Positions 7,991 to 33,519 of a stretch of 38,200 bases of DNA are shown one piece after another. The notes beneath the pieces were generated by a model. It did no database searches. It was given only the letters and a program-made list of their open reading frames with translations, and was not told the origin of the DNA. The position numbers and the translations under genes are program-made. The stretch's first letter is position 1. Every line of letters begins with the position of its first letter. Source of the DNA: Escherichia phage sortregn; sequence record MN850588.1. One strand, 5' to 3'.

Positions 7991-8788
7991 ATGGGGAATT
8001 TTTGGACCTACCACGAGAACACCCAGCGCGGCGGGATCGAACTGGGCCGAGTAATCGACCCGGCGAAAGCCTCGCGCCCGGTGATCTACCTAGAATCAGA
8101 TCCGCCAGGTCTGGACGCGGCGAAGGTTTCCGCCTTCATGCCGTACTACGTTTACACTCCGATGTCCTTCACTCAGGACTTGCCGGGAGTGGCTGGTGGC
8201 GATGCCGCCGCGACCTTCGTCCCTGGGGGGAGCACGTTCTCCGCGACGGTCGAAGTCGCCGGAGGTCAAGCGCCGTTTACTTATCAGTGGTACAAGTTTA
8301 GCGGCGGAGTCGGAACGGCGATCACGCTGGCGCAGAACGCCACGGCCCAGTCGAAGGTATTCCAGATCACCAACTACACCGCAGCGGCTCAACCCGGATC
8401 CGGTAACGGTGATTGGTATGTTGTCGTAACCGACGCGACCGGGGCCACGCTCCAGTCTCAGCGCATCCGCACGAAACAGGCGATCGCCTACTCCGTCAAC
8501 CTACCGACGACCGACACCTGGACCGTCGGGACCGCCGACGCCTTAACCGTCACCGTGAACGCGGCTACGGGCCTTGCGCCGTATACTCATGAATGGTTTA
8601 AGGATGGCGTTTCTCAGGGGCCGGGGACGTCGAGCGGGACGGGGAACGCGACCTCCACGCTATCGAAGGCAAGCCCGGCAGCGGGCGACGCTGGCGTGTA
8701 TTATTGCATTTCCACCAGCGCCAACACGAACCCGCCGAAAACCATCCAGAGCATTTCTTGCACTGTAACCGTTAACCCGGCAGCATAA
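7991..8788 (+). CDS. Ig-like domain protein (two Ig-like repeats)
   Basis: ORF 7952..8788, start moved to ATG 7991 after AGAGAGGA; repeats FTYQWYKF...DWYVVVTD and YTHEWFKDG...GVYYCIS resemble Ig I-set strands. Confidence 0.6.
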   Translation: MGNFWTYHENTQRGGIELGRVIDPAKASRPVIYLESDPPGLDAAKVSAFMPYYVYTPMSFTQDLPGVAGGDAAATFVPGGSTFSATVEVAGGQAPFTYQWYKFSGGVGTAITLAQNATAQSKVFQITNYTAAAQPGSGNGDWYVVVTDATGATLQSQRIRTKQAIAYSVNLPTTDTWTVGTADALTVTVNAATGLAPYTHEWFKDGVSQGPGTSSGTGNATSTLSKASPAAGDAGVYYCISTSANTNPPKTIQSISCTVTVNPAA

Positions 8789-8798
8789 GGAGCCGACT

Positions 8799-9011
8799 AT
8801 GTTTTATCACTCGCAGGACCTACCGGAGCGCGGCGGCGTTCTACTGACGAAGATCGCGGATCCTGGTTCGGCCCAGGTACAAGCGCGGGATCTGGTCTGG
8901 CTGGATGCTGACCCGACGGGCGGATCGTGGGAGCCACTCCCGGCAGTGTTCGACAAGGTGGACGCCTCCGGGCTGGAGAATCACCTCTCCTACTTCATCC
9001 CATACGCATAA
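8799..9011 (+). CDS. hypothetical protein
   Basis: 70 aa ORF with AGGAG SD, same operon as Ig-like gene. Confidence 0.45.
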   Translation: MFYHSQDLPERGGVLLTKIADPGSAQVQARDLVWLDADPTGGSWEPLPAVFDKVDASGLENHLSYFIPYA

Positions 9012-9040
9012 AAAAGGGGGCCAATCGGCCCCCTGTTTAC
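9010..9040. terminator. bidirectional terminator between convergent genes
   Basis: A6, GGGGGCC-AATC-GGCCCCC hairpin, then TGTTTAC. Confidence 0.65.
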
Positions 9041-9558
9041 TGCTGACGCTCCACGGCGTCGTAATTCACTTCGCAGACCTCCCCGGCGGTGATCGCCTTC
9101 TCCGCTATATCAGCATACCGTCGAGCAGCTTCTCCAGTCCCTCGGAGCAAGTCGGAATACATTCGGGCGGTCTTTTCCCCTGACGCCCTTCCGAGGGCAG
9201 CGGTCTGATCAGCGGCTTCGCGTCTGGCGTTCTCTTTGGCGGCTCGTTCGAGCAACCGATCAAGGGCAGCACCAGCAGCAGCAGAAGCGGCGCGAGCTTT
9301 TGCGGCCTGTTCGTTCGCATATTTTACGGACTCCTCGCGGGCAATGGCCCGGCCTTGTTCAATGATACGGGCGGCGGCTTGTGCGTTCGCTTCCTGGGTG
9401 GATTCCTTCGCGATCCGAGCATTGTCGCGAGCGGTCCAGCCCCGGTCCGTCCAGGCCGAGCCAGCCCAGAAAGATCCCCCCAGCGCCAGCAGCACGACAA
9501 CGACGAGCAGCAGCGATCGCCAGTGAGTCGAAAGGAACACGCGGAGGGCGGCGATCAT
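9037..9558 (-). CDS. Rz-like i-spanin
   Basis: N-terminal TM segment LLLVVVVLLALGG, coiled-coil rich; start overlaps endolysin stop (ATGA); embedded lipoprotein ORF. Confidence 0.6.
   Translation of the reverse strand: MIAALRVFLSTHWRSLLLVVVVLLALGGSFWAGSAWTDRGWTARDNARIAKESTQEANAQAAARIIEQGRAIAREESVKYANEQAAKARAASAAAGAALDRLLERAAKENARREAADQTAALGRASGEKTARMYSDLLRGTGEAARRYADIAEKAITAGEVCEVNYDAVERQQ
9105..9320 (-). CDS. Rz1-like o-spanin lipoprotein, embedded out of frame within Rz
   Basis: Signal peptide with lipobox LIGC, proline-rich mature part, fully nested in Rz gene. Confidence 0.55.
   Translation of the reverse strand: MRTNRPQKLAPLLLLLVLPLIGCSNEPPKRTPDAKPLIRPLPSEGRQGKRPPECIPTCSEGLEKLLDGMLI
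9473..9483 (-). repeat. CTGGGGGGATC 11-mer copy (sense strand of Rz gene)
   Basis: Exact match on minus strand; frame-checked against Rz residues L26-G-G-S29. Confidence 0.85.
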
Positions 9559-10034
9559 TCGTCTGCAACCTTACCGCCAGCGGCGCGGAAGTAGCCCAGG
9601 AAGTCCTCGAAAGTCTCCGTTCGCTGACCGTATGGGGAGCCAGGCAGGGAGGCCCAGATGGTCCGGCATTTCTTCACGGCGTCCTTGATCCGGCCCGCGT
9701 CGATGTCGTCCAGCGCTTTACGCTCGCTGATCTGCTGGAGGGCGATCTGGTCCTGTGATGCCGGAGAGAAGTCCGGGAGTCCAAGCTGTTTTTTGTACAC
9801 GTCATAATAGCGGCTTAACAACTGGTAGCGCCCGGCGGCGGTTGAATTGATCCCCAGCTTCGGCAGCTTTACGAGGCGGTTCGGATGCTTCGAGTAGTCG
9901 CTGAACAGGGAGCCGCCCACGATCACGTCGTAGCCGTGATTGCGCGTCTGCTGGCGTCCGTTGTCTGTTCCCTCGCCTACCGCGATCGCGTCCAGGAATG
10001 CCTTACGCTGGGGCGTGACTTCAAATTTTGCCAT
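9555..10034 (-). CDS. endolysin, phage lambda R-like lytic transglycosylase
   Basis: 159 aa; QRKAFLDAIAVGEGTDNGRQQTRNHGYDVIVGG and GRYQLLSRYYD closely resemble lambda R. Confidence 0.9.
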   Translation of the reverse strand: MAKFEVTPQRKAFLDAIAVGEGTDNGRQQTRNHGYDVIVGGSLFSDYSKHPNRLVKLPKLGINSTAAGRYQLLSRYYDVYKKQLGLPDFSPASQDQIALQQISERKALDDIDAGRIKDAVKKCRTIWASLPGSPYGQRTETFEDFLGYFRAAGGKVADE

Positions 10035-10374
10035 CGGTCTGATCCTCGTGGTTAGTGTGCGCCGGAGTAGCGCGGATTTTTTTCAGGAATGGGATCTTTT
10101 CGCTGGCCCAGTCGAGCGCCGTCTCTACGCCCACGTAGCCCAGGAACACCGAAGCCAGATAGCCCCAGGTGCCATGATCGACCCCGAAGAATGATAAAAT
10201 ATTATTCATACCGAAAGCGACAGCAGCGCAGATCGCCCCGCCGCTGACAATATCGCGGAACGGGTGGCGCAATTGCCAGTGACGGAACACAGCCACCGAT
10301 GCCGCGATGAACGAATAACCTAACTCAACGCGGTATAGCTGGAACAATTGCCATAGCGTCGTATGCTCAGACAT
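10021..10374 (-). CDS. holin, lambda S-like
   Basis: ORF 10021..10440 (TTG) with start moved to ATG 10374; TM helices and ASVFLGYVGVE resemble lambda S; overlaps endolysin start. Confidence 0.7.
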   Translation of the reverse strand: MSEHTTLWQLFQLYRVELGYSFIAASVAVFRHWQLRHPFRDIVSGGAICAAVAFGMNNILSFFGVDHGTWGYLASVFLGYVGVETALDWASEKIPFLKKIRATPAHTNHEDQTDGKI

Positions 10375-10472
10375 TGGAGGGATCCCTTTTAACAAGTGAG
10401 TGAACGCTAAAAGGGTAGCATGTGGAATCAAGGGCCGCAAAGCCCCTTTTCAGATGAAAGGTTAAGTAATTG

Positions 10473-10784
10473 TTATTTGCCGGAAAGAAGGCGCAAGGCG
10501 TCCATAGGAGACTCCGCCCCGGCTAACTGTTTAGCGAAGCCCTCCGCCGCCTGGCGCAGCTTGTCCACGTCCTCGAAGCCGCGATCGCGAGCCGCTTCCG
10601 CTTCGGTGTAGGCCGCTTCCCCGTCCATCGCCTGATCGTCCGGGTGGAACACCAGGTTAAACGACAATTCCGCGCCCTGGATCTCAGTGACCAGGCAGAT
10701 CGCCGGATTGTCGTCCGAGTCCTCGCCTTTGCGGACCAGAACCTGGCGATCGTGTGCTTCAAATAAGTGTGCGAAACGTTCCAT
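10473..10784 (-). CDS. hypothetical acidic protein
   Basis: ORF 10473..10889 with start moved to ATG 10784 after AAGAGG. Confidence 0.45.
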   Translation of the reverse strand: MERFAHLFEAHDRQVLVRKGEDSDDNPAICLVTEIQGAELSFNLVFHPDDQAMDGEAAYTEAEAARDRGFEDVDKLRQAAEGFAKQLAGAESPMDALRLLSGK

Positions 10785-10789
10785 AATAT

Positions 10790-11026
10790 TTACCTCTTGC
10801 CTTTGACCTGGAGCCGCTGACGACGGCCCCGCGTTTTGTTGTTGTACTCCTCGTGGGACAGTAGATCCCACGTTTCCCCCTCGTCCCACGTCACGAGCCG
10901 CCAGCTATAGCCCACGTTGAACGCTAACACCTTGCCGAAACCCCGGAGGCGCTTCGGTGACAACTCCCGCGCATAGTACCGCGCCAGAATGTCGTCGGCC
11001 TTCCGCTGGACCTTCTCCGGGATCAT
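10790..11026 (-). CDS. hypothetical basic protein
   Basis: 78 aa ORF, ATG start, overlaps next gene. Confidence 0.45.
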   Translation of the reverse strand: MIPEKVQRKADDILARYYARELSPKRLRGFGKVLAFNVGYSWRLVTWDEGETWDLLSHEEYNNKTRGRRQRLQVKGKR

Positions 11027-11400
11027 CCCGCAGGACCGGACAGGACAGCCAGCGCGAGGCGGGCGTGTTTGATCCGGCCTTCCAGAAATTCCCGCATCTC
11101 CTCGATCGCAGCCTCAGCCGTGACCGCTTCGAACTCGTCGCGATGGTTCCCGCGAGGGCCTTCCGGCAGCGAATAACAAGCCGTGTAACGCGTGATGCTA
11201 CGGCAGACGATCGAGACTGGTCCGCATGTGAGAATGTACCCGAACCCGCCGCCCAGCTTCTCCTCGCGCTCGTATGTCTGAACGCGGATCGGCATGGACT
11301 GGACGCTGGACTGGTGGCGAATGAGCGAGGCCACGCGCTCCGCGTCCTGCTGTGCGTCGGAGGCAGTGGGCCAGCGTGTTACTACTGTTACTTTCGACAT
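11023..11400 (-). CDS. hypothetical protein
   Basis: 125 aa ORF, AGGAG SD upstream. Confidence 0.45.
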   Translation of the reverse strand: MSKVTVVTRWPTASDAQQDAERVASLIRHQSSVQSMPIRVQTYEREEKLGGGFGYILTCGPVSIVCRSITRYTACYSLPEGPRGNHRDEFEAVTAEAAIEEMREFLEGRIKHARLALAVLSGPAG

Positions 11401-11441
11401 CTTCGACTCCTGGGTGGATGGCCCCCGAAGGGGCCGGGTGA

Positions 11442-11693
11442 TTAATAATATTCGTCGGCGCGGATCTTGTTACGATGGATAATGCGACGTGCTTCGAGTT
11501 CGCCGCGTGTGGTGTACTCGTCCACGTACTCCTCGATCTCCGGCTCCTCGCCTGTGAGTTCCGGCGCTTTCCATGAGAGATAACGCTTAACTGTGCCAGT
11601 TTTAACGAACGCCGGGAGCAGGTTTTTAAAGTTACGTGACCAGTGACGCCCGCGCTCTTGATCGCCTTTTACCATGATTGTTAAGTTTGCCAT
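11442..11693 (-). CDS. hypothetical protein
   Basis: 83 aa ORF. Confidence 0.45.
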   Translation of the reverse strand: MANLTIMVKGDQERGRHWSRNFKNLLPAFVKTGTVKRYLSWKAPELTGEEPEIEEYVDEYTTRGELEARRIIHRNKIRADEYY

Positions 11694-11766
11694 CGTTATC
11701 TCTCCGGTAGTGGGCGACCCATTGCCGCCCGGTGAAAGAACTATAACAACATTTGATAAATCGCTT

Positions 11767-12420
11767 TTAGCAATTCGTGCTATTCGGATAAAGATACTCG
11801 CTCAACCGGGCCACCAGCGGCTCGTCTGGACCGAACTCAAACAGCCCGCCGTCGTTCTTGATCGAGTGGTGGATCTCCGCCAGTAACGTCTCCGCCCGCT
11901 GGAGCCTGGACGCCGCCGCGTTATCATGCCCGATCAGCTTCGTGATCTCCTCCTCCAGATCAGCGCCGAGCGCCGACGTCGCCCAGTGTTCGGCATACTC
12001 GCGATCCTTCAACAACCGGATCAGGGCCAACACGTCCGACTCGATACCGACAGTCGGGCCAGGCTGGAGCCGTGGCTGGATCTCGTCGAGCGTCTGCTGG
12101 GTAGCGTTCAACGTCCGGCGGATCTTGTCCTGTTCGGCCTTGCTCAGGTCCAGGATCAGCGGCGAAGCCGGGAGGCCATTTAACCAGGCGATCAGGTCGT
12201 CGTAAGGCATGACGGAATAAGCCTTCTCCGACGCGTACCCGGTGATCCGCCAGTCAGTGGTCGAACTGTACGCCTCGGAAATATCATCCTCCCGCAATTC
12301 GCGATAGACGATCTCAGCGCGACCGTTGTCGATCTTGCTCAGGCTCTCGATCAGCGTCTCCGGGATGTGGATCACTTCTTCGCCATTCTTAACGGCGGTT
12401 ACTGCGACATATCTGATCAT
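11767..12420 (-). CDS. hypothetical protein
   Basis: ORF 11767..12447 with start moved to ATG 12420 (GAGGAAAGAGAG upstream, ATGA overlap with upstream gene). Confidence 0.5.
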   Translation of the reverse strand: MIRYVAVTAVKNGEEVIHIPETLIESLSKIDNGRAEIVYRELREDDISEAYSSTTDWRITGYASEKAYSVMPYDDLIAWLNGLPASPLILDLSKAEQDKIRRTLNATQQTLDEIQPRLQPGPTVGIESDVLALIRLLKDREYAEHWATSALGADLEEEITKLIGHDNAAASRLQRAETLLAEIHHSIKNDGGLFEFGPDEPLVARLSEYLYPNSTNC

Positions 12421-12851
12421 CTCTCTTTCCTCATGGCTTGTTTGCATTGTAAAGCGGCGAGGGCCATCTCCGGGCCAATCTCGACGCCTGGGGGGAACCC
12501 TGTTTCCGTGGTCGCCAGCTTCGAACGATCCACCTTAAGGTCCCGTAATTGTCCGGCCCGTTCCATTTGTCCGGCGTGTCGGCAGAGATCCAGCAGCTTC
12601 TTACGATCGACGCCGGGGCAGTCCCAGAACGCCGCGAATATTTGCTCCGATGGTCGCAGGGCGCAAAAAGCATTGCGCGTTTCAACCGTCGGCAGATAAG
12701 GATCCATTCTCCCCTGTTCTATCGCCTCAATGATCGAGGGATCGGTGGAGCGGATCTTCTCCAGAATCTCCAGGCGGCGCTCCATTGCCGTCTTGCGTTT
12801 AACCGTGGCCCGAAGTGGGGCGGCAGGTTTTGAATCATCAAACAGTGACAT
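12417..12851 (-). CDS. hypothetical protein, first gene of leftward operon
   Basis: ORF 12417..12977 with start moved to ATG 12851 after GGAGGG. Confidence 0.5.
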   Translation of the reverse strand: MSLFDDSKPAAPLRATVKRKTAMERRLEILEKIRSTDPSIIEAIEQGRMDPYLPTVETRNAFCALRPSEQIFAAFWDCPGVDRKKLLDLCRHAGQMERAGQLRDLKVDRSKLATTETGFPPGVEIGPEMALAALQCKQAMRKER

Positions 12852-12991
12852 ATTGCCCTCCGTTGTGTGGAAATCAATATTACATAACGTTACCATGATG
12901 TAAAGCCCAACCGTGATAATAATTGACTTTACAGTGGTAACAAGGGCGGGTAACATTGCGACCAGTAACGCAACCATGAGGTGATTAAACA
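12852..12991. promoter_or_regulatory. divergent promoter/operator region with GGTAAC repeats
   Basis: 140-bp intergenic region between divergent operons; GGTAAC at 12936-41 and 12949-54, AGTAAC at 12964-69, GTTACC at 12888-93; sigma70-like hexamers TTGACT 12923-28 and GATAAT 12914-19. Confidence 0.45.
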
Positions 12992-14656
12992 GTGATTGAC
13001 TACGACGACGACAACCAGCCAGATCGCAGCGAGCAGGAGATCAGGGAGATGATCCGCCCAGAGCCGACGCCTCTCGAACCCGTCCCGGACTGGATGGGCC
13101 AGACCCCGGAGCCGACGGACGAGGAGGTGGCCCGGCAGATGGCGATCGAGGCTGAACGCGAAGCGGCAGAGCTGGAGTATTACCGATTCAACGACGACAA
13201 CCCGGACGATCACGCCTACGAGGTCGCGGTGAAGGATAACGAGGTGACGCTGGTCAAGCGCTCCGAAATGACCGAGGAGGAGCGGGCGGAGGCTTACCTG
13301 GCGAAGCAGCGCGAGAAGGACCGCAAGGCGATCGCCGACCTGCTGGCAGACGAGCCGGACCCCCTGCTGGAGGAACTGAACAAGGGCAACGAGATCAAGC
13401 CCGTTAATTACGTGATCCAGAACCTGATCCCGGAGCGCTCCGTGGGCTTCCTGGTCGGCGAGTCCGGCGCTAAGAAAACCTTTGCGGCCCTCCATATGGC
13501 CCTGTGCGTGGCGCGTGGCGTTCACTTCGGCGGCTTGCCAGTACGACAGGGATCCGTGATGTACTTCGCGCCGGAGGATGCGAACGGCGTCCGTGAGCGT
13601 TACGCGGGCTGGAAGTACACTCAGAACAAGAACGAGAACTTGCCTAATTTTTGGGTACTGGGCCAACAGGTCCCACTCCACCGCGAGGATCTTCTCCGCA
13701 AGTTCGGCGCGAGGATCAAGGACTCCGCATTTTTCCAGGCGAACCCCCTCTCCCTGATCGTGATCGATACCTACAGCGCCAACTCCGCCGGGCAGAAGGT
13801 CGGACAGACGCCAGTCAAGAAGGACGGGAAGATCGCGGAATGGGTAGGCGGGCGCGACTTCGACGAGAACGACAATAACGTGGCGGCGATCCTCATGAAG
13901 AACGCGGCAGACCTGGCGGACATGCTGGAGTGTGCCGTGATGATCATCCACCACACCGGGAAGGACACGGAGCGCGGCGGGCGCGGCGCGTCGGCTCTCA
14001 AGGCTAACGCAGGTTTTGAGGTCCTCGTGAAGAAATGCGCGAAGGACCGGGAGCTTTTCATCATTGAGCACTCGAAGGCGAAAGGCTGTGCGCTGTTACC
14101 GCCGCGAGCCATGCGCACGAAGGCGGCGAAACTCCCGCCGGACCTGGTGAAGATGAAGCGCGACGCGCTGGCCCGCATGACCGGACTCGACAACGAGGCG
14201 AAGAACAACCCGGCAGCGTGGGAGATCGGCGACAACCTGGGGACGCTGGTCGTCGTGAACAAGGTCGAGCCAGTCCCGACCGATAAGGCCGAGGAGAAGG
14301 ACGCGGGCGAGGAGAAAGGTCGCACCAAGCAGGAGGAACACGCGCTCCAGCTTTTGGCCTACGTGGTCGAGTACAACCACGATCGCGCCAGCAAGAACTA
14401 CAGGACGCCGAAACTCACAAAGGCGGCGCTCCGTGAGTGGGCGAAGAACTTCGCGGACCCGTCGCTGGATAAGCATCAATTCGCCCGCGCGTTCAAGTAC
14501 GCCACCGAAAAAGCGATGGTGATCAAAATGGCCGGGGATCAGACGCTAACCGCATCAACGGAAGCGCCCGCACTCCTGGGAGGGATCCGCGAACAGCAGC
14601 CACGATCCACGGACTGGAAACCAACCTCCGGCGGAGGTGATCTTGATGACTTTTGA
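12992..14656 (+). CDS. RecA-like replicative ATPase/helicase (AAA_25-type, RepA/DnaB-like)
   Basis: 554 aa; Walker A GESGAKKT, Walker B IVIDTYS, IIHHTGK motif; GTG start with GAGGTGA SD. Confidence 0.65.
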   Translation: MIDYDDDNQPDRSEQEIREMIRPEPTPLEPVPDWMGQTPEPTDEEVARQMAIEAEREAAELEYYRFNDDNPDDHAYEVAVKDNEVTLVKRSEMTEEERAEAYLAKQREKDRKAIADLLADEPDPLLEELNKGNEIKPVNYVIQNLIPERSVGFLVGESGAKKTFAALHMALCVARGVHFGGLPVRQGSVMYFAPEDANGVRERYAGWKYTQNKNENLPNFWVLGQQVPLHREDLLRKFGARIKDSAFFQANPLSLIVIDTYSANSAGQKVGQTPVKKDGKIAEWVGGRDFDENDNNVAAILMKNAADLADMLECAVMIIHHTGKDTERGGRGASALKANAGFEVLVKKCAKDRELFIIEHSKAKGCALLPPRAMRTKAAKLPPDLVKMKRDALARMTGLDNEAKNNPAAWEIGDNLGTLVVVNKVEPVPTDKAEEKDAGEEKGRTKQEEHALQLLAYVVEYNHDRASKNYRTPKLTKAALREWAKNFADPSLDKHQFARAFKYATEKAMVIKMAGDQTLTASTEAPALLGGIREQQPRSTDWKPTSGGGDLDDF

Positions 14657-14911
14657 CCGGGGCGTGTGTTGGTAACGAGTAACACCCCCCCTTATAGGGG
14701 GGGATGTAACGTGTTACCGCAACCCACAAGGCCGAAAACATAGTTTTTTATGTGTACTGTTACCGACAAGCGACCGTAATCAAATCAATCATTTATGTGT
14801 GATTCGGTAACGGGGAAAGTAGCGAATCGGTCGCGGGGAAATCGGGGGGTAAAAATCGGGGGTGACCCCCGACAAAATCCCCGCCAAATAATCATTGATA
14901 AGTGATGCGAA
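14657..14911. promoter_or_regulatory. repeat-rich non-coding region, candidate replication origin/regulatory region
   Basis: 255 bp non-coding after replicative ATPase gene: C7-TTATA-G7 hairpin 14685-14703, six (G/A/T)GTAAC sites, TTATGTGT twice, three AAATCGGGG-like repeats, GGGGG-TGA-CCCCC palindrome. Confidence 0.4.
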
Positions 14912-15100
14912 ATGAGCGACGATAACAACGTTATTTTATTCCCCAGACGGACACCGATCGGAGAGGTTCAACCAGTACGATCGAACGTCTGGATCGAGCG
15001 CTTCGGAATGTGGAATTACTTCCTGATGGTAGCGACAACCATCGGCGCGATCGTGGTCGGACTGGCGGCGATCGTGTTTAACATGCTGGGCCTGATGTGA
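14912..15100 (+). CDS. small membrane protein
   Basis: 62 aa ORF with one C-terminal hydrophobic helix. Confidence 0.4.
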   Translation: MSDDNNVILFPRRTPIGEVQPVRSNVWIERFGMWNYFLMVATTIGAIVVGLAAIVFNMLGLM

Positions 15101-15328
15101 GGCCCGTCACGACGACGAGGAAACGAGGAGATGATGATGAATGACGAACACGGCAAGAAATCCAACGTAGCGGACGTCTCGCATATGTATGTAGGCCCGA
15201 ACCAACGCGCCTCACTGCTGGAGAAGGCGTTCGAGATGTTCAGAGCGGCGGCGTCGTGATCCTGGACTCGTCCGTGGTCGAATGGTCCGAAGTGGAGGCA
15301 TACCGCCCGGCAAAGTGAGGGCCGGGAC

Positions 15329-17185: not shown

Positions 17186-17597
17186 ACTCCCGCCGGACAC
17201 TTACGGCAGACTGGAGGCGCTGGGCCTGAAATGGTTCACCGCCTCCCCTTACCCTTATTTCATCGTGTGCTTTGACCCGCAGGACGAGGAGATGGTGGCG
17301 AAGCTGGGCGAATGCTTCCCGGACTGGAACCGCGAGAAGCCGATCCAGCAAGGCGTCGCCATTGAGTACCACGCCGCCGACGTTAAGCTGGTGTTCGTAG
17401 GCGTCCGCCGGGGCCAATACTGGCGGACGACCATCGTCCACGAGATCGTCCACGTTAAGAACTACATCGGCGACACGCTGGGGATCGAGTGGGACGTGAA
17501 CAACGACGAGCCGGAGGCTTACTTCGTGGGCTGGCTGTTTAACATGATGGAGCAAACCTTCCAGGATCTGGGCTATGGCAAAAAATCGAAAGGATAA
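17163..17597 (+). CDS. hypothetical protein with HExxH motif (possible zincin-like)
   Basis: 144 aa ORF between TerS and TerL; HEIVH followed by acidic EPEAYF. Confidence 0.45.
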   Translation: MAKPKTNKLPPDTYGRLEALGLKWFTASPYPYFIVCFDPQDEEMVAKLGECFPDWNREKPIQQGVAIEYHAADVKLVFVGVRRGQYWRTTIVHEIVHVKNYIGDTLGIEWDVNNDEPEAYFVGWLFNMMEQTFQDLGYGKKSKG

Positions 17598-19197
17598 CCT
17601 CGCACGACTGGCCCGACTGGAGGGCCGGGCGTCTTACGTGGCCCGCGATGGTGGCCTGGTGTATGGCGTTTATGAGCCGGACGGGACCAGCGCCAAGCAC
17701 TGCTACAACATGAAGAAGGTTAACGGCGAATGGGTGTACACCTCCGAGCCGCACGACATCACGATCGCGGAGTGTCTGACCCCGATCCTCCTCCGTCCGA
17801 AGCGCTTTATTATCCTGGTCGGCGGGCGTGGCTCCGGGAAGTCGCTCACCGTCGGCGGGATCATCGACGCAGACGCCCACGACGAGGCGGCGAGCGCGAT
17901 GTGTCTCCGCGAATACCAGGCATCGATCAAGGATTCAGTCCACCCGCTCCTCGTCAACCGGATCGAGGAGTACGGTCTGGACGGCTTCGAGATCCTGGAG
18001 AAGGAGATCCGCCACACCAACGGCGCGATCATCCGTTTTAAGGGGATGGCGAGGGACCCAGCGGGCGTAAAATCCGCGTTCGGCTTCCGTCGCTTCTGGG
18101 GCGAGGAGGCGCAGACCTTTTCCGCCGAGTCTCTCCGCCAGTTAACGCCAACGATGCGCGAAACGGGCGGTATTATGCTGTTCACGGCGAACCCCGGCTC
18201 CAGTGAGGACGCATTCAGTCAGAGATTCCTGATCCCATTCTGGGAGGATCTCCAGCGGGACGGCATCTACGAGGACGATCTCCACCTGATAATCCGCGTC
18301 AACTGGTCGGATAACCCCTGGTTCCCCCCAGAGCTTCGATCGGAGATGGAGTTCGACCGCCAGACGCTTTCAAAGGCGCTATTCGATCACGTATGGGAAG
18401 GCCATTTTAATGACAGTGTGCCGGATGCCATTATCCCGGCGGAATGGTTCGACGCGGCGATCGACGCCCACAAGAAACTCGGATTCAAGCCGACCGGGAT
18501 CAGGATCGGCGCACTCGACCCGGCGGACGTCGGGGCGGATAACAAGGCTTACGGCGAGCGTTACGGCTCCGTGGTCACGCATATGGAGGAATGGTTCGAA
18601 GGTGACGCGAACGACTCCGTAGACAAGGCGATCAACACGGCGAAGGACCACGGGATCGAGGCGTTCGTGTGGGACCGCGCCGGACTGGGCGCTGGCTTGC
18701 GCCGCCAGGTCACGGAGGCTTACGCCGGGACGAAGGTCCTCGTAGACGGTTACAACGCCGGGGACGGCGTGAAGCACCCTGACAACCCTGTGGAGCTTGA
18801 TCACTGGCTGAACAACAAGGCCAGCGGGAACAATATCCAGAAGAACGCCGACGCGTTCGCGAACCGTGGCTCCCAGGACATCTACCTGTTACGGAAGCGC
18901 TTCGAAAGGACTTACGAGGCCGTGGTGAAGGGCGTATATCACAACCCGGACGAACTGATCGCGCTGGACAGCGAGGGGATCGGGGAGCATATGACCAAAC
19001 TCAGGGCGGAAGTGTGCCGTATTCCGCGCATTTACAACACCAACGGGAAATTTGCTAGGATGCCTAAGCCGCAGATGCGGACCAAACTCAAAATGAAGTC
19101 GCCGGGGATGGCTGACGTGCTTTGCATGTTGATGCAGCCGCCGGAGACGGTGAAAGACGAAGATTATTCCGGCTATAATGTGCCGAGCAACCGCTAA
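17575..19197 (+). CDS. terminase large subunit
   Basis: 540 aa; Walker A ILVGGRGSGKS, acidic nuclease-type C-terminal half; precedes portal. Confidence 0.85.
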   Translation: MAKNRKDNLARLARLEGRASYVARDGGLVYGVYEPDGTSAKHCYNMKKVNGEWVYTSEPHDITIAECLTPILLRPKRFIILVGGRGSGKSLTVGGIIDADAHDEAASAMCLREYQASIKDSVHPLLVNRIEEYGLDGFEILEKEIRHTNGAIIRFKGMARDPAGVKSAFGFRRFWGEEAQTFSAESLRQLTPTMRETGGIMLFTANPGSSEDAFSQRFLIPFWEDLQRDGIYEDDLHLIIRVNWSDNPWFPPELRSEMEFDRQTLSKALFDHVWEGHFNDSVPDAIIPAEWFDAAIDAHKKLGFKPTGIRIGALDPADVGADNKAYGERYGSVVTHMEEWFEGDANDSVDKAINTAKDHGIEAFVWDRAGLGAGLRRQVTEAYAGTKVLVDGYNAGDGVKHPDNPVELDHWLNNKASGNNIQKNADAFANRGSQDIYLLRKRFERTYEAVVKGVYHNPDELIALDSEGIGEHMTKLRAEVCRIPRIYNTNGKFARMPKPQMRTKLKMKSPGMADVLCMLMQPPETVKDEDYSGYNVPSNR

Positions 19198-19214
19198 ACC
19201 CCACGGAGAACATC

Positions 19215-21449
19215 ATGGCACGAGTTAAAAAATCGGTGCAGAACTGGCAGGAATGCGCCCGGAAGAAATTAAGCGCCGCGATCGGGGCGGAGGACACCAG
19301 CCGCAAGAAGATGATCGAAACGGCGCGATTTGTCCGCATTCCTGGCGCTCAGTGGGAAGGCTCCACGAACTCCGGCTTTGCGATGGATGATGAACGTTTC
19401 CAGAAATACCCGCGATTTGAGCTAAACAAGGTCGGGCGCGAGGTGGATCGCATCATTTCAGACTACCGCCTGAACCGCGTAAACGTCACGTTCCGCCCGA
19501 AGGACACCCAGGCCTCCGAAGAACTGGCGGACAAGCTGAACGGCAAGTTTCGCGCAGACTTCAACGAGTCGAACGGCTCCGAAGCCGTGGACAACACCTA
19601 CGAGGACGGCGTGACGGGCGGAATGGGCGCTTTCCGCATGGACACCGAACTGGAGGACGAGTTCGACCCGGACAACGAACAGCGTCACATTGTTTTTTAC
19701 CCGATCTATGATCCGGCCTCGTGCCTGTTTATCGATCAGGACTCCAAGATGTACGATCGCAGTGATGCTATGTGGATGGCGGAGCTATTCAGCATGACCC
19801 CGGACAAGTACGAGGAGCGCTATCCCGACGCCCTCGCCCCGGAGGACCTGATGGCGATCGATACCGGGAAACAATTCGACTGGGCCACGAAGGACGCGAT
19901 CTATCTGGCGCGTTACTACGAGGTGAAGATCGAGGACACCACCGTGATCTCCTACAAGAACCCGTTAACCGGGGAGGTGGAGGTCTACGACGAGGACGAG
20001 ATCGAGCAGATCGAGGACGAACTGGAGGCCGGAGGCTGGGAACGCCAGAAGGATCGCAAGGTCAAGCGCCGCAAGGTCTATTGCGGACTTATGACTGGTG
20101 GCGAATGGCTGGAGGAGCCGAAGCTGATCCCGTTCGAGTGGATCCCGATCTTCGTGTTCAACGCCCGCCGCTCGTTCATCGACAACATGGAACGCGTAAG
20201 CGGTCACGCGACCCAGGCCCTCGACGCGCAACGTCTGGAAAACCTGATCGTGTCCATGATGGCGGACCAGGCCGCGCAGTCTGGCGGCGATAACATCCCG
20301 ATCATGGACATTGATATGATTCCCGGAGCGCTGGCTGACGCCTGGGGGGAACGTAACACGAAGCGCCCGGCATACTTGCCCGCTAAATCGCTCCGTAACG
20401 CCGCTGGTGAGGTTGTGCAGCAAGCCGGGCCACTGGGTTACACGCCATCGACGCCGCTCTCTCCGGCGCTGGCAGCGGTCCTACAGTACACCGGGAGCAC
20501 TATCCAGCAGATCGTCGGCTCGTCCCAGGTGGAGGCGTTACCGTCGAACCTGGCGACCGAAACCGTGGAGGCCATTTTCGCCCGTATGGACGGACAGGGC
20601 GCTCTCTACATGGACAACCTGGGGAAAACGCTCCGCCACTGTGGGCGCGTGTACCTCAGCGCGGCCCGCAAGGTCTACGGCTCGGAGAATTACGTCCGCG
20701 TGAAGAACGAGGACGGGACCGACGATCTCGTGTTAATGACCGGGAAAGTGATCGATCGTGACACGGACGAGGCGATCGCGATTAACGACCTCAAGCGCGG
20801 GAAATATGAGGTCGAGGCCGACGTGGGCGAGTCCTCCCAGACGAAGCGCGTCGCAACCGTTCGCAGCCTGACGAATCTCCTCCAGTCCATGCAGCCTGGC
20901 GACCCGAACGCCGCCGTAGTGATGGGCCTGATCATCATGAACATGGACGGCGAAGGCTTGCAGGACTTCAAGGAATACAGCCGCCGCCAGCTTCTCCTGA
21001 ATGGCATCGTGAAGCCGCAGACGGACGAGGAGAAAGCGATGGTAGCCGAGGCCCAGCAAGCCGCCCAGCAGCAGCCGGACGCGCAGATGGTAGCCGCTCA
21101 GGGCGTAGCGCAGCAGGGACAGGCCGCAGTGATGGAGCAGGAGAACAAGCGTTTAGAACTGACGCTCAAGGCGCAGAGCACCGCGTCCGACGGTCAACTG
21201 AAAAACGCGCAGACGGTCAAGACGATGGCAGAGGCGGCGGCAATCCCGCAGGATCAGCTATTGAGCGCGATCGCCGTTCTCCAGAAGTACGTCTCCCAGC
21301 AGAACAGCGACGCCCACAAACAGGCGGATCTGTTCCTCAAGGCTCAGGGACAGGGCCACACCCAGCGCGAGGACCAGATGGCCCGCGAGATGGCAGAGCG
21401 CCAGGCATCGCAGAGCGCCGATCGTCAACTGGGATTAGCTGGCCTGTAA
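19215..21449 (+). CDS. portal protein (P22 gp1-like, Q/A-rich helical C-terminus)
   Basis: 744 aa, follows TerL, GGAGAA SD, intrinsic terminator after stop. Confidence 0.8.
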   Translation: MARVKKSVQNWQECARKKLSAAIGAEDTSRKKMIETARFVRIPGAQWEGSTNSGFAMDDERFQKYPRFELNKVGREVDRIISDYRLNRVNVTFRPKDTQASEELADKLNGKFRADFNESNGSEAVDNTYEDGVTGGMGAFRMDTELEDEFDPDNEQRHIVFYPIYDPASCLFIDQDSKMYDRSDAMWMAELFSMTPDKYEERYPDALAPEDLMAIDTGKQFDWATKDAIYLARYYEVKIEDTTVISYKNPLTGEVEVYDEDEIEQIEDELEAGGWERQKDRKVKRRKVYCGLMTGGEWLEEPKLIPFEWIPIFVFNARRSFIDNMERVSGHATQALDAQRLENLIVSMMADQAAQSGGDNIPIMDIDMIPGALADAWGERNTKRPAYLPAKSLRNAAGEVVQQAGPLGYTPSTPLSPALAAVLQYTGSTIQQIVGSSQVEALPSNLATETVEAIFARMDGQGALYMDNLGKTLRHCGRVYLSAARKVYGSENYVRVKNEDGTDDLVLMTGKVIDRDTDEAIAINDLKRGKYEVEADVGESSQTKRVATVRSLTNLLQSMQPGDPNAAVVMGLIIMNMDGEGLQDFKEYSRRQLLLNGIVKPQTDEEKAMVAEAQQAAQQQPDAQMVAAQGVAQQGQAAVMEQENKRLELTLKAQSTASDGQLKNAQTVKTMAEAAAIPQDQLLSAIAVLQKYVSQQNSDAHKQADLFLKAQGQGHTQREDQMAREMAERQASQSADRQLGLAGL

Positions 21450-21479
21450 CTGGTCGGACCGCACGAAAAGCTAAAGACA

Positions 21480-21505
21480 AGCCCGCTTCGGCGGGCTATT
21501 CTTTG
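21480..21505 (+). terminator. intrinsic terminator after portal gene
   Basis: AGCCCGC-TTCG-GCGGGCT hairpin followed by ATTCTTTG. Confidence 0.6.
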
Positions 21506-21508
21506 CCT

Positions 21509-21519
21509 CGACACATCAC
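21509..21519 (+). repeat. CGACACATCAC element copy 1 (after portal terminator)
   Basis: 11-mer identical to 25041-25051; 25 nt upstream of ATG 21544. Confidence 0.7.
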
Positions 21520-21543
21520 TAAACCATTACAAAGGAGTTTTGA

Positions 21544-21765
21544 ATGGCCCGATCACTGATAGCAGTCAAAGACGCCGCCGGGGAAAAGTACCTCCTCCCG
21601 GTCCGTAACATCGTGAGCGTGACGGAGTTCCCGGACAACGAGCGCCGCGTGGAGGTCAAGGTCCGCGAGCCGATCAATGGCCCAGACGGGCGGATCTGTG
21701 GGTACGAGTTAAACCTGTATTACTCGCCAATGTCGATCGCACAATTCGAAGGGGCTTACGCGTGA
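21544..21765 (+). CDS. hypothetical protein
   Basis: 73 aa ORF, AAGGAG SD, first of four coupled small genes. Confidence 0.45.
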   Translation: MARSLIAVKDAAGEKYLLPVRNIVSVTEFPDNERRVEVKVREPINGPDGRICGYELNLYYSPMSIAQFEGAYA

Positions 21766-21932
21766 AACGCTACAAATGCACCGTAGGCGACAAGCGCGGG
21801 GCGTTCGGCGACTGTATGGAGCAGGACAAGGACGGGGACTGGATGCGCGTCTCCGACCATAATCGACACATTCAGGCACTGGAGCGCCAGATCGCGGCGC
21901 TAAAGGCCAAAACCAGAGAGACGAAACAATGA
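21762..21932 (+). CDS. possible small protein (56 aa, GTG start)
   Basis: Own reading; overlaps both neighbours (GTGA and ATGA); below ORF-track cutoff. Confidence 0.3.
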   Translation: MKRYKCTVGDKRGAFGDCMEQDKDGDWMRVSDHNRHIQALERQIAALKAKTRETKQ

Positions 21933-22297
21933 AAACGACCTACAACCTCGACCAGATGGCCCTCTTTTCTGCGATCGCCGCAGCGGTAGGAAAACAGGCG
22001 CCAGGGCTTCCGGCGGATAACCGCGCTAACGTGGTGATCGAGGCCGCAAACATGATCGTAGCGGCCTATGCGCTGACCGATGCCGAATACATGGCGAAGA
22101 AGGCAGAAGCGCCGATCGCCGTTGACCTCCAGCCGACGGCGGAACAGGTGGAGGCCGGGATCGCCTCGCTGTGGGACACCATCCCCGGCGCGATGGATCA
22201 GCTATGCCAGGACGTGGCAGAGGAGGAGCAGGGCGATCTATTCTCCGACGCTGTTACTTTCGTGTGGCAAGCCATGATCGGGAAGCGTCCACAATGA
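21929..22297 (+). CDS. hypothetical protein
   Basis: 122 aa ORF, ATGA coupling. Confidence 0.45.
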   Translation: MKTTYNLDQMALFSAIAAAVGKQAPGLPADNRANVVIEAANMIVAAYALTDAEYMAKKAEAPIAVDLQPTAEQVEAGIASLWDTIPGAMDQLCQDVAEEEQGDLFSDAVTFVWQAMIGKRPQ

Positions 22298-22563
22298 GCG
22301 TAATCCATCACTACCTCGCCTTTCCGGGCGGGGGAGTGTCCGCCCTCCGCAAGCTGGGCCAGACGCTCGAAGAACGCCACGACCTCGACGGCATACTGGA
22401 GGGGCCGGAGGAGGGGGAGCGCTGGCGCATCGTAGCCAGTGAGATGATCCACGCCGCAGAAGGGCCAGACGTCGCGCTCTACTACGTGATCCCCGCTTCG
22501 GTTCCACCGCACCACGAGGCGCTCTATCTCTCGCAAGCCCTCGTAAAAGCCGCCACGAAATAA
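22294..22563 (+). CDS. hypothetical protein
   Basis: Internal ATG 22294 of ORF 22171..22563 overlapping previous stop; 89 aa. Confidence 0.4.
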   Translation: MSVIHHYLAFPGGGVSALRKLGQTLEERHDLDGILEGPEEGERWRIVASEMIHAAEGPDVALYYVIPASVPPHHEALYLSQALVKAATK

Positions 22564-22572
22564 CCCGCCACC

Positions 22573-22583
22573 CTGGGGGGATC
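22573..22583 (+). repeat. CTGGGGGGATC 11-mer copy (intergenic, part of hairpin)
   Basis: Exact match 10 nt after stop of the 89-aa gene. Confidence 0.8.
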
Positions 22584-22612
22584 GTTAATCGCGATCTCCC
22601 CTATTTGCATTT
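22575..22612 (+). terminator. hairpin with T-rich tail (possible terminator/attenuator)
   Basis: GGGGGGATCG-TTAATCG-CGATCTCCCC 10-bp stem with one G-T pair, followed by TATTTGCATTTT. Confidence 0.4.
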
Positions 22613-22690
22613 TCCCGCCGCCCTCGCTTAAACTTACTCCCGCCACCGATGGGCGAATACATCGCGTATGCAACAAAACGAGGATCTACG

Positions 22691-23689
22691 ATGAAATTCC
22701 GTGAAATGTTTTTGAAATATTATGCACCGTACACCGAGAACGACGGCGGCGCGGCGGCATATGAAGCTATGCAGAACGGCAACTCTCAGGAAGCCACGGA
22801 CGACACCCCGGACACTGACCCGAACGAGCAGGACCACGACAACGACAACGACGTGGACACCGATCTGGACGAGCAGGATCTGGACGAGAACGGCAAGCCG
22901 AAGGCGAAGGAAGGCGGCGAGAACGCGGAAACCGAGGACGAGGAGGAGGAGTTCCTGTTCGACGGTCAACCAGTTACCGCAGCGCCTACGGACGAAGATG
23001 ATCAGGAAGGCGACAGCGACCTGGTGAAACATCTCCGCGCCCAACTCCGCGAGCAGAAAAAACAATTCAAGACCTCCACCCAGGCGGCGCAGGAGCGCAA
23101 AGAGATTCCCGCAGATATGCCCCGCAAGCCAGAGATGGGCGACGAGGGGATCGACTGGGACCCGGAGAAGTACGCCGAAGCGCTGGACAAGTGGACCGAG
23201 GACAAGGCCGCTTATCAGCAGCGCGAGCAGGAGATGGCAGCGAAGCGCGAAGCGTTCGGGAAGAAATTCTCCGAAGGCCAGCAGCGCTACCAGACCGAAC
23301 GCGCTAAGGCGATCAAGAAGTATGCGGGCTTTGAGAAGGCCGAAGCCGCGATCGCAGAACTGCCGGAGCCGTTACAGGCGGGCCTGATGATCAACAGTAA
23401 GAACCCGGCGGCGCTGGTCATGGTACTGGGACGTAACGCTGATTTGCGGAAGCAAGTCGAGGATGCCTATAATAGCGACCATATCGCGCTGGGCTACCTA
23501 ATCCGCGATATTGAGGCCCGCGCAGGTTCCAAGCCGAAGGCGAAACAGAATCTCAATTCTACGCCAGAAGTTAAGGGCCAGAACGGAGTCGCAAACGTCG
23601 GACAACTGGAAGCACTTCGCAAACGAGCGGAAGCGACCGGGGATTATACGGAATACTTCGCAGCCAAGAACAAACGGGCTGAAAAGTAA
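22691..23689 (+). CDS. scaffolding protein (P22 gp8-like)
   Basis: ORF 22649..23689 with start moved to ATG 22691 after ACGAGGA; highly acidic N-terminus, C-terminal helices resemble P22 gp8 coat-binding region; precedes coat gene. Confidence 0.7.
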   Translation: MKFREMFLKYYAPYTENDGGAAAYEAMQNGNSQEATDDTPDTDPNEQDHDNDNDVDTDLDEQDLDENGKPKAKEGGENAETEDEEEEFLFDGQPVTAAPTDEDDQEGDSDLVKHLRAQLREQKKQFKTSTQAAQERKEIPADMPRKPEMGDEGIDWDPEKYAEALDKWTEDKAAYQQREQEMAAKREAFGKKFSEGQQRYQTERAKAIKKYAGFEKAEAAIAELPEPLQAGLMINSKNPAALVMVLGRNADLRKQVEDAYNSDHIALGYLIRDIEARAGSKPKAKQNLNSTPEVKGQNGVANVGQLEALRKRAEATGDYTEYFAAKNKRAEK

Positions 23690-23719
23690 AACTAACACTC
23701 TATCGGTGGAGATGGATAA

Positions 23720-24976: not shown

Positions 24977-24996
24977 GACGCGACGCGCAGCACAAA

Positions 24997-25022
24997 GGGG
25001 AGCCATTGGCTCCTCTTTTTTT
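24997..25022 (+). terminator. strong intrinsic terminator after coat gene
   Basis: GGAGCC-ATTG-GCTCC hairpin followed by T-rich run. Confidence 0.75.
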
Positions 25023-25040
25023 ATGGCTTATACTGTTCCC

Positions 25041-25051
25041 CGACACATCAC
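25041..25051 (+). repeat. CGACACATCAC element copy 2 (after coat terminator)
   Basis: 11-mer identical to 21509-21519; 20 nt upstream of ATG 25071. Confidence 0.7.
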
Positions 25052-25070
25052 CCTATCAAGAGGATCTACC

Positions 25071-25589
25071 ATGTCACGCAATAAGACCGCGATCGCCGTA
25101 GCTATGACCATGATTTACACCCGCCCCGCTATCATCGCCGGGGAAAATATCAAAGGTCTGGAAGTCCTGACCCGCGACCACACGGACGGCCCCTACGCCC
25201 GCGCCTCGTTCCCGGATGAAGAAGCCGCCGAGCGTCTGGAGTCTGGCTTCTGGGTGGATCATCCGGTCAAACTCTCCACGCTGGACAAGGCGATCGCCGA
25301 AGCCGCTCAGAAGGAAGCGGAGCAGGACAAAAAGGACGCCGACAACCAGAAAGCCGAGCAGGTGAAGAAGGAGCAGGACGAGAAGGTGGAAGATAAGGCC
25401 CCAGAATCGACCGCTACGGCCTCCGAGCAGAAAGACGACCCGAAGGCCACCGAAGCGGAAAAAGCCGCAGAGAGCGGCGCAGAGGCTCAGGAATCCACCC
25501 AGGAAGCGAAGGCCGACGAATCCAAGCCGAAAGACGGCGAGAAGGTAGACGGCGCGAAAGTTCCGACTGATAAGAAGGCGAAGAAATAA
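25071..25589 (+). CDS. hypothetical protein with Lys/Glu/Ala/Asp-rich disordered tail
   Basis: Internal ATG 25071 of ORF 24948..25589 after AAGAGGA; roughly 75 aa ordered N-terminus then charged low-complexity tail. Confidence 0.5.
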   Translation: MSRNKTAIAVAMTMIYTRPAIIAGENIKGLEVLTRDHTDGPYARASFPDEEAAERLESGFWVDHPVKLSTLDKAIAEAAQKEAEQDKKDADNQKAEQVKKEQDEKVEDKAPESTATASEQKDDPKATEAEKAAESGAEAQESTQEAKADESKPKDGEKVDGAKVPTDKKAKK

Positions 25590-25591
25590 TT

Positions 25592-27480: not shown

Positions 27481-27484
27481 TGCA

Positions 27485-27495
27485 CTGGGGGGATC
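27485..27495 (+). repeat. CTGGGGGGATC 11-mer copy (immediately 5-prime of gp26-like ATG)
   Basis: Exact match ending one base before ATG 27496. Confidence 0.85.
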
Positions 27496-28092: not shown

Positions 28093-28094
28093 TC

Positions 28095-33491: not shown

Positions 33492-33496
33492 CAAAC

Positions 33497-33519
33497 GGGG
33501 GCCAGGTGGCCCCCTTCTC
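33497..33519 (+). terminator. hairpin (weak terminator/attenuator) before tailspike
   Basis: GGGGGCC-AGGT-GGCCCCC followed by TTCTC, short U-tract. Confidence 0.4.

Follow-up and report, generated by a model that had tools for sequence, protein, structure and literature searches.

A leftward block of small genes and a hairpin-bearing leader ahead of the lysis cassette of Escherichia phage sortregn

Are lysis genes that lie behind a leftward block of small phage genes expressed together with that block, and what might the small genes do? This question is raised by the locus at 9037–12991 of Escherichia phage sortregn, which we analyzed within the 38,200-nt sequence record MN850588.1 (hereafter, the window). 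Six open reading frames (ORFs) of 78–217 aa run along the (−) strand from 12851 to 10473 and are followed on that strand by the holin, endolysin, and Rz/Rz1 genes from 10374 to 9037, all ten genes being co-oriented with small gaps between them, whereas the genes from terminase through tailspike occupy the (+) strand at 17575–35925. In lambda and P22, the lysis genes head the late transcript. The original prediction, made from the sequence of the window, described a leftward operon of six ORFans reading into a lysis cassette inverted relative to the late morphogenesis genes, and its account of the layout held up: the ORF positions agree, Pfam and PHROG matches identify the lysis genes, and the cassette lies on the strand opposite to late morphogenesis. 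The arrangement does differ from that of lambda and P22, as had been claimed, and from this difference a separate control of lysis timing can fairly be inferred. The explanation that we favor, with confidence about evenly balanced, is that an early accessory operon precedes a lysis cassette under the separate control of its own leader. The layout can already be seen in published genomes, where nearly all of the six genes carry hypothetical annotations; new in the present analysis are our interpretation of the holin leader and the assignment of ORF5 to a family of prophage early-operon genes.

Sortregn (Murrayvirus; MN850588; 38,200 bp, 59.3% GC) has been reported to share 97.3% similarity with Salmonella phage Lumpael (PMC7552041), and the locus at 9037–12991 is 96.8% identical to that Murrayvirus over its full length and 77–90% identical to other Murrayvirus, Sortsnevirus, and Kosakonia phages. 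The group consists of podoviruses with a P22-like virion module that were obtained as lytic isolates, and we regard sortregn as a virulent P22-like Escherichia coli podovirus; the latent period of Kc237 is 40 min (PMC8402661). The same layout is found in Murrayvirus, Sortsnevirus, Skarprettervirus, and Kosakonia phage Kc166B, and homologues of the ORFs keep their order in 13 related genomes, with all six collinear in ST231, sortsyn, KMB41, IME_EC2, Sortsne, sortkaff, IME279, Kc237, and three metagenomic viral contigs. Given these syntenic homologues and pairwise dN/dS values of 0.09–0.62 (0.02–0.05 for the holin), the six ORFs are real genes under purifying selection. Skarpretter, from a separate genus, carries a RepA-like gene, nine leftward ORFs, a 98-nt gap with a terminator, and then holin–endolysin–Rz; in Kc166B, four leftward ORFs, the last being an unannotated PF24732 gene (E = 2e-20), precede a terminator and then the holin. 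Since they are present in these two phages as well, the position and orientation of the lysis cassette, together with its leader, are ancestral to a wide group.

The leader between the gene block and the holin

The 98-nt gap between ORF6 and the holin (10375–10472) is better conserved across Murrayvirus and Sortsnevirus than the genes that flank it, and RNAalifold and single-sequence folding predicted two hairpins within it in every lineage. Hairpin 1 (10430–10447, (−) strand) is a terminator-like stem-loop, the stems of which differ by lineage and are fully complementary in each (AAAGGGCC/GGCCCTTT, ATGGAGCC/GGCTCCAT, AAGCGCC/GGCGCTT, and AACCGCC/GGCGGTT). A run of 6–8 T follows it in most genomes, and the copies of ST231, Skarpretter, and Kc166B scored as intrinsic terminators; the T-run is interrupted (CCCTTGATTCC) in the window, Lumpael, and Sortsne, and for this reason the window copy was not called a terminator. 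Hairpin 2 (10384–10415, (−) strand) is predicted to mask the Shine-Dalgarno (SD) sequence of the holin gene, CCCUUUUAGCG pairing with UGUUAAAAGGG; the corresponding partners are CCCCUC and GAGGG in Skarpretter and GUUGGCCCC and GGGGAUCAAC in Kc166B. Compensatory changes were observed at four pairs in hairpin 1 and three in hairpin 2 (7 of 19 pairs overall), and a helix sequestering the SD in transcripts derived from upstream is predicted, with such changes, in all lineages. A covariance model of the leader recovered all 13 leaders; 89% of the cells in the model-fitted alignment were paired, as opposed to 34–63% in slid controls, and none of 500 shuffles reached the covariation score of 0.229 (0.124 in shuffles). 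The 36-mer of the holin leader is unique, with no second copy elsewhere in the genome. Across leaders, the predicted mean probability of the SD being unpaired was 0.14–0.42 in read-through RNA and 0.42–0.60 in RNA from the predicted start; the sortregn values were 0.16 and 0.42, respectively.

That predicted start belongs to a candidate promoter nested in the leader, TTGCGG-17-TACCCT (spacing of 17–18 nt across leaders). Its −35 hexamer (10435–10440) sits in the loop of hairpin 1, and its −10 hexamer (10412–10417) overlaps the 5′ arm of hairpin 2. TTG(C/T)GG, with an invariant TTG, is retained in the loop despite the variation of the stems, and 12 of the 13 leaders have a TAnnnT hexamer 17–18 nt downstream (TACCCT in Murrayvirus and Sortsnevirus, TATATT in Skarpretter); the 7 nt that follow this −10-like hexamer are occupied by the anti-SD tract. 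The original prediction had named in advance a separate late promoter, mapped immediately upstream of the holin, as part of the evidence that would count against it, and the weak, conserved site predicted here comes near to that. The nested terminator–promoter design recurs inside the late operon. Behind the capsid gene, a terminator (24994–25018) is overlapped by TTGGCT-17-TATACT (25006–25034), the −35 hexamer of which falls in the loop of the terminator; in Sortsne and the window, this post-capsid site is matched by the leader covariance model as well. In addition, the genome contains the pattern TAnnnT-N7-11-CAC(A/T)TCAC at only three positions, all of them behind hairpins and in front of late-type genes.

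Further features of the late operon were recorded. The sequence CGACACATCAC occurs exactly twice in the genome (21509–21519 and 25041–25051), both times in the late operon and 7 nt past a −10-like hexamer; we rejected it as a shared late motif, the exact form being absent from the holin leader, which shares only the looser CAC(A/T)TCAC. A site behind the portal gene (21470–21503) has the sigma70-like arrangement AAGACA-17-TATTCT, in which the 17-nt spacer is itself a GC hairpin, and reads TTTACA-17-TATTCT in Sortsne (L030, ~31920–31960) and AAGACA-17-TATAGT in Skarpretter (L031, ~24130–24170). The stems of the post-portal hairpin covary across three genera.

Taken as a whole, the locus can be read as two units. 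Unit 1 (12851 to 10473) would be an early-type accessory operon transcribed from PL, a predicted promoter placed back to back with that of a RepA-like helicase gene (see below), and unit 2 (10374 to 9037) is a lambda-type holin–endolysin–Rz/Rz1 cassette. Hairpin 1 would serve as an intrinsic terminator in most relatives and in a weakened form in sortregn; from this terminator and from the SD pairing in hairpin 2, it would follow that PL transcription is reduced at the leader and that the RNA reading through translates the holin poorly. The lysis genes would then be switched on by the weak, probably factor-dependent promoter within the leader, transcripts of which would start inside hairpin 2 (at about GUUCAC) without its 5′ arm, so that the SD would stay unpaired, in the manner of T4 gene e.

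Several observations weigh against this reading. The candidate holin promoter agrees with the consensus at 6 of 12 positions and went unreported by the promoter scan; given this partial match, we treat the nested promoter as hypothetical. In Kc166B, the hexamer is TATCGT and the spacing 20 nt. The folding z-scores of the leader are modest (−1.3 to −2.8). Since the leader alignment was fitted to the structure, and since hairpin 2 hardly varies among Murrayvirus and Sortsnevirus phages, so that its covariation comes from two distant genomes, the covariation amounts to good but not conclusive support. Our search of the literature on this phage group found no paper with transcript, start-site, or protein-function data. 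Finally, because the terminator T-run is broken in sortregn, plain read-through from PL may be substantial.

The last point leads to an alternative in which PL transcribes everything from ORF1 to Rz as a single operon, the hairpins just lower the dose of lysis proteins, and the holin threshold sets the lysis time. The common orientation and small gaps of the ten genes fit this idea, as does the degenerate T-run of hairpin 1 in the window, Lumpael, and Sortsne; moreover, apart from a weak site within ORF3, the promoter scan found no consensus promoter on the (−) strand from PL to the holin, and the only strong terminator stands after Rz (9015–9034, (−) strand; AGGGGGCC-GATT-GGCCCCCT followed by TTTTTT), where it closes the cassette. 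However, most relatives carry a full intrinsic terminator at hairpin 1, the leader is more conserved than the genes on either side, and it resembles modules inside the late operon. A holin made from the first minutes would, furthermore, need just such damping, and the leader would still be a separate gate. We therefore consider a single operon reading into the lysis genes the weaker of the two readings, possible but rather doubtful. As for the claim that the operon reads into the cassette, the shared strand stands, and the reading-through itself is in doubt given a terminator-like and an SD-masking hairpin within 10375–10472. If the leader works as proposed for a gated cassette, a phage that has neither its own RNA polymerase nor a recognizable Q-type antiterminator would keep its holin silent during early transcription of the same strand by stacking termination, SD masking, and a promoter nested in a terminator.

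The gated cassette has the lambda-type order of holin, endolysin, and two-component spanin, with Rz1 inside Rz. The holin (10021–10374, (−) strand; 117 aa) belongs to the lambda S family (PF05106, 5e-9; phrog_126, 3e-17). Its translation begins MSEHTT with no second Met nearby, and the dual-start holin/antiholin motif (Met-Lys-Met) is absent; an upstream TTG start at 10440 was rejected, as it would fall inside the leader and has no ribosome-binding site (RBS). The endolysin (9555–10034, (−) strand; 159 aa) is of lambda R type (phrog_90, 5e-55), and its relatives are annotated as lysozyme R or endolysin; despite this match and the lambda R-like sequence, it has no Pfam match. The Rz-type inner-membrane spanin (9037–9558, (−) strand; 173 aa; PF10721, 2e-26; phrog_312) contains the embedded gene of the Rz1 lipoprotein (9105–9320, (−) strand; phrog_11621; lipobox LIGC). 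The lambda/P22 position of the lysis genes, first in the late transcript and on the morphogenesis strand, is not found here.

The gene block and its divergent promoter region

A consensus scan of 8700–15200 found seven sigma70-like sites, compared with 1.8 ± 1.3 expected, four of them in the 140-nt gap at 12852–12991. A divergent promoter had been placed in this very gap, and predicted sites do occur there on both strands. PL (12877–12904, (−) strand; TTTACA-16-TAATAT, with a GTAAC box in the spacer) is the predicted sigma70-like promoter for ORF1, and PR (12928–12956, (+) strand; TTTACA-17-TAACAT) is that for the RepA-like helicase gene (12992–14656, (+) strand; AAA_25 match at 1e-25). The −35 block of PL, CTTTACATCA, is invariant in the six aligned phages, with a −10-like hexamer ~17 nt further on in each, and a site equivalent to PR was also scored in ST231. 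GTTAC/GTAAC boxes are present in four copies at 12889–12965 and in six copies just downstream of the RepA-like gene (14672–14807), where 0.33 per 200 nt would be expected, and their distribution suggests shared operator or iteron sites. The 255-nt gap behind the RepA-like gene (14657–14911) has C7/G7 hairpins and is a candidate replication origin.

ORF1 (12417–12851, (−) strand; 144 aa; phrog_30497), the first gene after PL, is restricted to the clade: an exhaustive HMMER search with its profile gave two strong matches among 1.84 billion representative proteins, and IMG/VR holds relatives at seven loci, three of them new. Its RBS, GGAGGG, lies 5 nt before the ATG, in a context (CGGAGGGCAATATG) shared with the primase gene at 3646. 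Relatives are annotated at 146–151 aa, and the 186-aa version in Lumpael starts at an ATG without an RBS; on both counts, the longer start is unlikely. Lumpael gp15 (L001, 7499–8059) is probably annotated 42 codons too early at its start. The dN/dS of ORF1 is 0.16–0.28.

The remaining genes turn over from phage to phage. ORF2 (11767–12420, (−) strand; 217 aa) has a variable N-terminal and a conserved C-terminal part and is the most relaxed of the six (dN/dS of 0.5–0.6); its residues 120–177 match the segment of P22-type EaA that precedes the dATP/dGTP pyrophosphohydrolase domain, a domain that ORF2 itself lacks. ORF3 (11442–11693, (−) strand; 83 aa; phrog_33147 at 1e-49; dN/dS of 0.14–0.62) has homologues confined to this phage group, and those of ORF4 (11023–11400, (−) strand; 125 aa) are confined to the group plus Skarpretter. 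Over ORF3's homologue in Sortsne, gp05 (L005, 6903–7100) was probably called on the wrong strand. ORF2 and ORF3 are 87% and 84% identical to their Lumpael counterparts, the adjoining genes being 99–100% identical, and the interval 11442–12420 looks like a patch of recent recombination within the block. The predicted fold of ORF4 (alpha-beta5-alpha) has no known relative; a guess from sequence that the protein is HicB-like was ruled out by the structure model and fold searches. ORF6 (10473–10784, (−) strand; 103 aa, acidic; phrog_19244) has no Pfam or PDB match, and tblastn located homologues in about a dozen unrelated phages, without ORF5 beside them.

Between ORF3 and ORF4 (11401–11441, (−) strand), a hairpin GGCCCC-UUCG-GGGGCC without a T-run is followed by AUCCACCCAGGAG, the RBS of ORF4. 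It is conserved in seven phages and is kept even upstream of an unrelated allele in the ORF4 slot; because of this conservation before two unrelated alleles, it may be a module boundary or an element of RNA processing or stability. A search of Rfam gave no family in the window. A second copy of GGCCCC-TTCG-GGGGCC stands at 36893–36938, and both copies are followed by ATCC(A/T)CCCAGGAG and a start codon. Adjoining that second copy, a 146-aa Cys-rich ORF with weak zinc-ribbon matches (36452–36892, (−) strand) lies in a 535-nt stretch that is unannotated in Lumpael; the Sortsne gene at its position is annotated as an endonuclease.

The six genes had been described as lacking recognizable motifs, a description that is mistaken for ORF5, which carries PF24732, and imprecise for ORF2, with its EaA-like segment, and for ORF6; four of the six match PHROG families. 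Likewise, calling them ORFans is too strong for ORF5, ORF2, and ORF6; ORF1 is truly clade-restricted. Other searches gave little. The NCBIfam scan of the six ORFs returned nothing usable (one match to ORF6, far below the cut-off), no PADLOC defense-system model matched any of them (E up to 0.1), nothing consistent emerged when all aligned members of ORF1, ORF3, and ORF6 were scanned against Pfam, and profile searches of PDB sequences with ORF1, ORF2, ORF4, and ORF6 yielded matches at chance level only.

Could the six genes, or at least ORF1, instead be replication or regulatory accessory proteins tied to the RepA-like gene and not directed at the host? ORF1 is always the first gene and divergent from repA, it has the most invariant columns of the six among the phages compared (53 of 144 residues), and GTAAC boxes flank repA on both sides, those upstream being within the promoter region that it shares with ORF1. 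Nonetheless, the searches detected neither a DNA-binding nor a replication domain in any of the six, the recognized primase, DEAD-box helicase, nuclease, Erf, and SSB genes all lie in other blocks, and relatives differ in ORF2 to ORF6, which are mosaic and in part dispensable. We find this alternative very unlikely; the turnover of the block is more in keeping with accessory, host-facing genes than with core replication functions, although ORF1 could be a regulator. With regard to genome content, the 58 proteins of Lumpael mapped onto the window as a complete, circularly permuted genome minus gp05–gp12 only; ~3 kb of Lumpael (gp05 to gp12) is missing at 15238–15244, the junction falling between remnants of gp12 and gp05. 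A direct-repeat search of the whole genome revealed nothing relevant.

ORF5 and the toxin-antitoxin question

ORF5 (10790–11026, (−) strand; 78 aa; phrog_1525) is a member of Pfam PF24732 (ParE_like; E = 1.3e-18, 67 bits, cut-off of 24). A profile search retrieved 304 homologues, nearly all 69–80 aa long, many of which bear the name "ParE family toxin-like protein" in NCBI or UniRef; a single-sequence search gave four. Within the family, R43 is invariant and H58, E59, and Y61 are nearly so, which marks these four positions as candidate functional residues. The AlphaFold2 model (49 sequences; mean pLDDT of 83) has the order helix, four strands, helix, and its best Foldseek matches in the PDB are GraT, YoeB, HigB, a YoeB/ParE toxin, and RelK. 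ORF5 is thus assigned the RelE/ParE (BECR) fold by Pfam membership and by weak matches of its model. Here, too, some results point the other way: the structural matches to RelE-type toxins are weak (E of 0.26–2, TM of 0.44–0.55), profile searches of PDB sequences returned no toxin, only Asp-box repeats, and the SxDxGxTW part of the ORF5 motif is a generic Asp-box beta-hairpin. With weak structural matches and no toxin among the PDB-profile hits, the fold assignment rests mainly on the Pfam model and is modestly corroborated.

In lambdoid prophages, PF24732 genes are located in the early-left operon, between a cI-type repressor or Kil and the integrase; in these prophages and in phages Scapp, BZS1, phi467, and LMessi, they have differing neighbors and no homologue of ORF4 or ORF6. 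In the unrelated Serratia phage Scapp (L008, 2486–3126), the PF24732 gene overlaps the spanin genes at their start, a second instance of the family beside lysis genes, which may be a coincidence. In Kc166B, a plus-strand gene (L028, 4272–4883) that is probably an annotation error covers a minus-strand ORF run including the unannotated PF24732 gene (L028, 4122–4343).

Such a domain raises the possibility that ORF4–ORF5 or ORF5–ORF6 is a true type II toxin-antitoxin (TA) module serving phage exclusion or addiction. Besides the RelE/ParE-family domain of ORF5, the gene order would suit this: the stop codon of ORF4 overlaps the start of ORF5 (ATGA), with the antitoxin first, and an unrelated allele in the ORF4 slot (IME279 and contig L022) overlaps ORF5 in the same way. 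The predicted fold of ORF4 resembles small protein-binding inhibitors and immunity proteins, and ORF5 and ORF6 diverge in step across phages. Partnership is nevertheless poorly kept. A conserved adjoining antitoxin is lacking, as PF24732 genes in prophages and other phages keep no constant neighbor; ORF4 and ORF5 have discordant identities (89% and 56% in Sortsne, 42% and 92% in KMB41); ORF4 is replaced by the unrelated gene in IME279 and L022; ORF6 is widespread without ORF5 beside it; and Skarpretter has homologues of both ORF4 and ORF6 but no PF24732 gene. Neither do the candidate antitoxins look like autoregulating DNA-binding proteins, since Pfam, PDB-profile, and fold searches detected no RHH, HTH, AbrB, or Phd domain in ORF4 or ORF6, and the pair has no promoter of its own, the sole promoter-like match nearby being a weak one inside the end of ORF3, upstream of ORF4 (11473–11445). 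A phage-plasmid or prophage lifestyle, which would favor an addiction role, was considered and rejected: the locus has no copy in the 72,556 plasmids of PLSDB or in 5,426 complete E. coli genomes, and addiction is for that reason without support. In our judgment, a TA module is quite unlikely.

The family name also invites a second idea, namely, that ORF5 is a ParE-type gyrase poison that halts host DNA replication and transcription early in infection. Both Pfam and NCBI call the family ParE-like, and the PF24732 homologue of Kc166B also touches PF05016 (ParE_toxin) at E = 0.04, which is a weak match. Against this, the best structural matches of ORF5 are RNase-type toxins (GraT, YoeB, HigB, and RelK) and not ParE, ORF5 is much shorter than ParE, and a gyrase poison would harm the phage's own replication too; besides, RelE and ParE cannot be told apart by family name alone (PMC11980606). 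We accordingly give this idea little credence.

Instead, we favor ORF5 as a solitary early-acting effector, a view based on its prophage relatives' early-left position and on the precedent of T4 RegB, an early phage endoribonuclease with a RelE/YoeB fold and no known antitoxin (PMC3014915). As such, ORF5 would act early on host or early-phage RNA, less likely on gyrase, and, in the manner of RegB, without a dedicated antitoxin. A wider generalization, which at present seems unlikely though conceivable, is that PF24732 proteins are antitoxin-less RelE-fold mRNA interferases from the early operons of enterobacterial phages that shut down host or early-phage translation, a widespread counterpart of RegB. 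Many lambdoid prophages with the gene between kil and int would be included, and in the sortregn group the gene would stand directly ahead of lysis genes silenced until late by a terminator and an anti-SD leader. The original suggestion of a host-takeover or anti-defense block gains circumstantial support from the location of the ORF5 family next to Kil, the module shared by ORF2 and EaA, and the mosaicism of the genes; its anti-defense part did not find an echo in any matched defense or anti-defense family. The ORF5 family has hundreds of members in Enterobacterales prophages that are labeled as toxins and are uncharacterized. Establishing whether ORF5 is a solitary nuclease, poisons gyrase, or is an inert relic would alter the interpretation of "ParE family toxin-like" genes in prophage annotation, and the answer also bears on safety screens of therapeutic phages of this kind.

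Comparison with known systems

ORF5 resembles the toxins of RelE/ParE type II TA systems in its Pfam membership and in a compatible predicted fold; it differs from them in having no conserved antitoxin and no promoter of its own and in being located inside phage early operons. In setting it resembles T4 RegB, being a predicted RelE-fold protein in an early-type phage operon with no evident antitoxin. The two proteins share no sequence similarity, however, ORF5 is half the size, and a single His is nearly invariant in it, compared with two catalytic histidines in RegB; the likeness would accordingly be one of functional analogy only.

The block as a whole can be compared with the early-left (PL) regions of lambdoid and P22-like phages, which contain kil and ea genes. 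Both are leftward blocks of small, mosaic, non-essential-looking genes, and they are linked by the occurrence of the ORF5 family next to Kil and by the module common to ORF2 and EaA. In contrast, the sortregn block belongs to a phage that was not found as a plasmid or an E. coli prophage, diverges from a RepA-like gene and not from a repressor, and ends at a lysis cassette.

That cassette has the gene order and families of lambda S-R-Rz/Rz1, including an Rz1 embedded in another frame. Unlike its lambda counterpart, it is not placed at the head of the late operon under a Q-dependent promoter; its strand is opposite to that of the structural genes, it comes after six small genes, a terminator, and an SD-masking leader, and its holin has no dual-start motif.

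The closest precedent for such a leader is T4 gene e (lysozyme), in which read-through transcripts carry an inhibitory helix and are translationally silent, while transcripts from the late promoter are active (PMC3014915). As in gene e, a predicted hairpin pairs the SD of the first lysis gene, and a promoter-like hexamer lies in the DNA of the 5′ arm, such that sortregn transcripts starting there would lack the arm. The candidate site in sortregn differs in being weak and sigma70-like and not a T4 late promoter (TATAAATA), and the gene that would be gated is the holin rather than the endolysin, with a terminator stacked in front.

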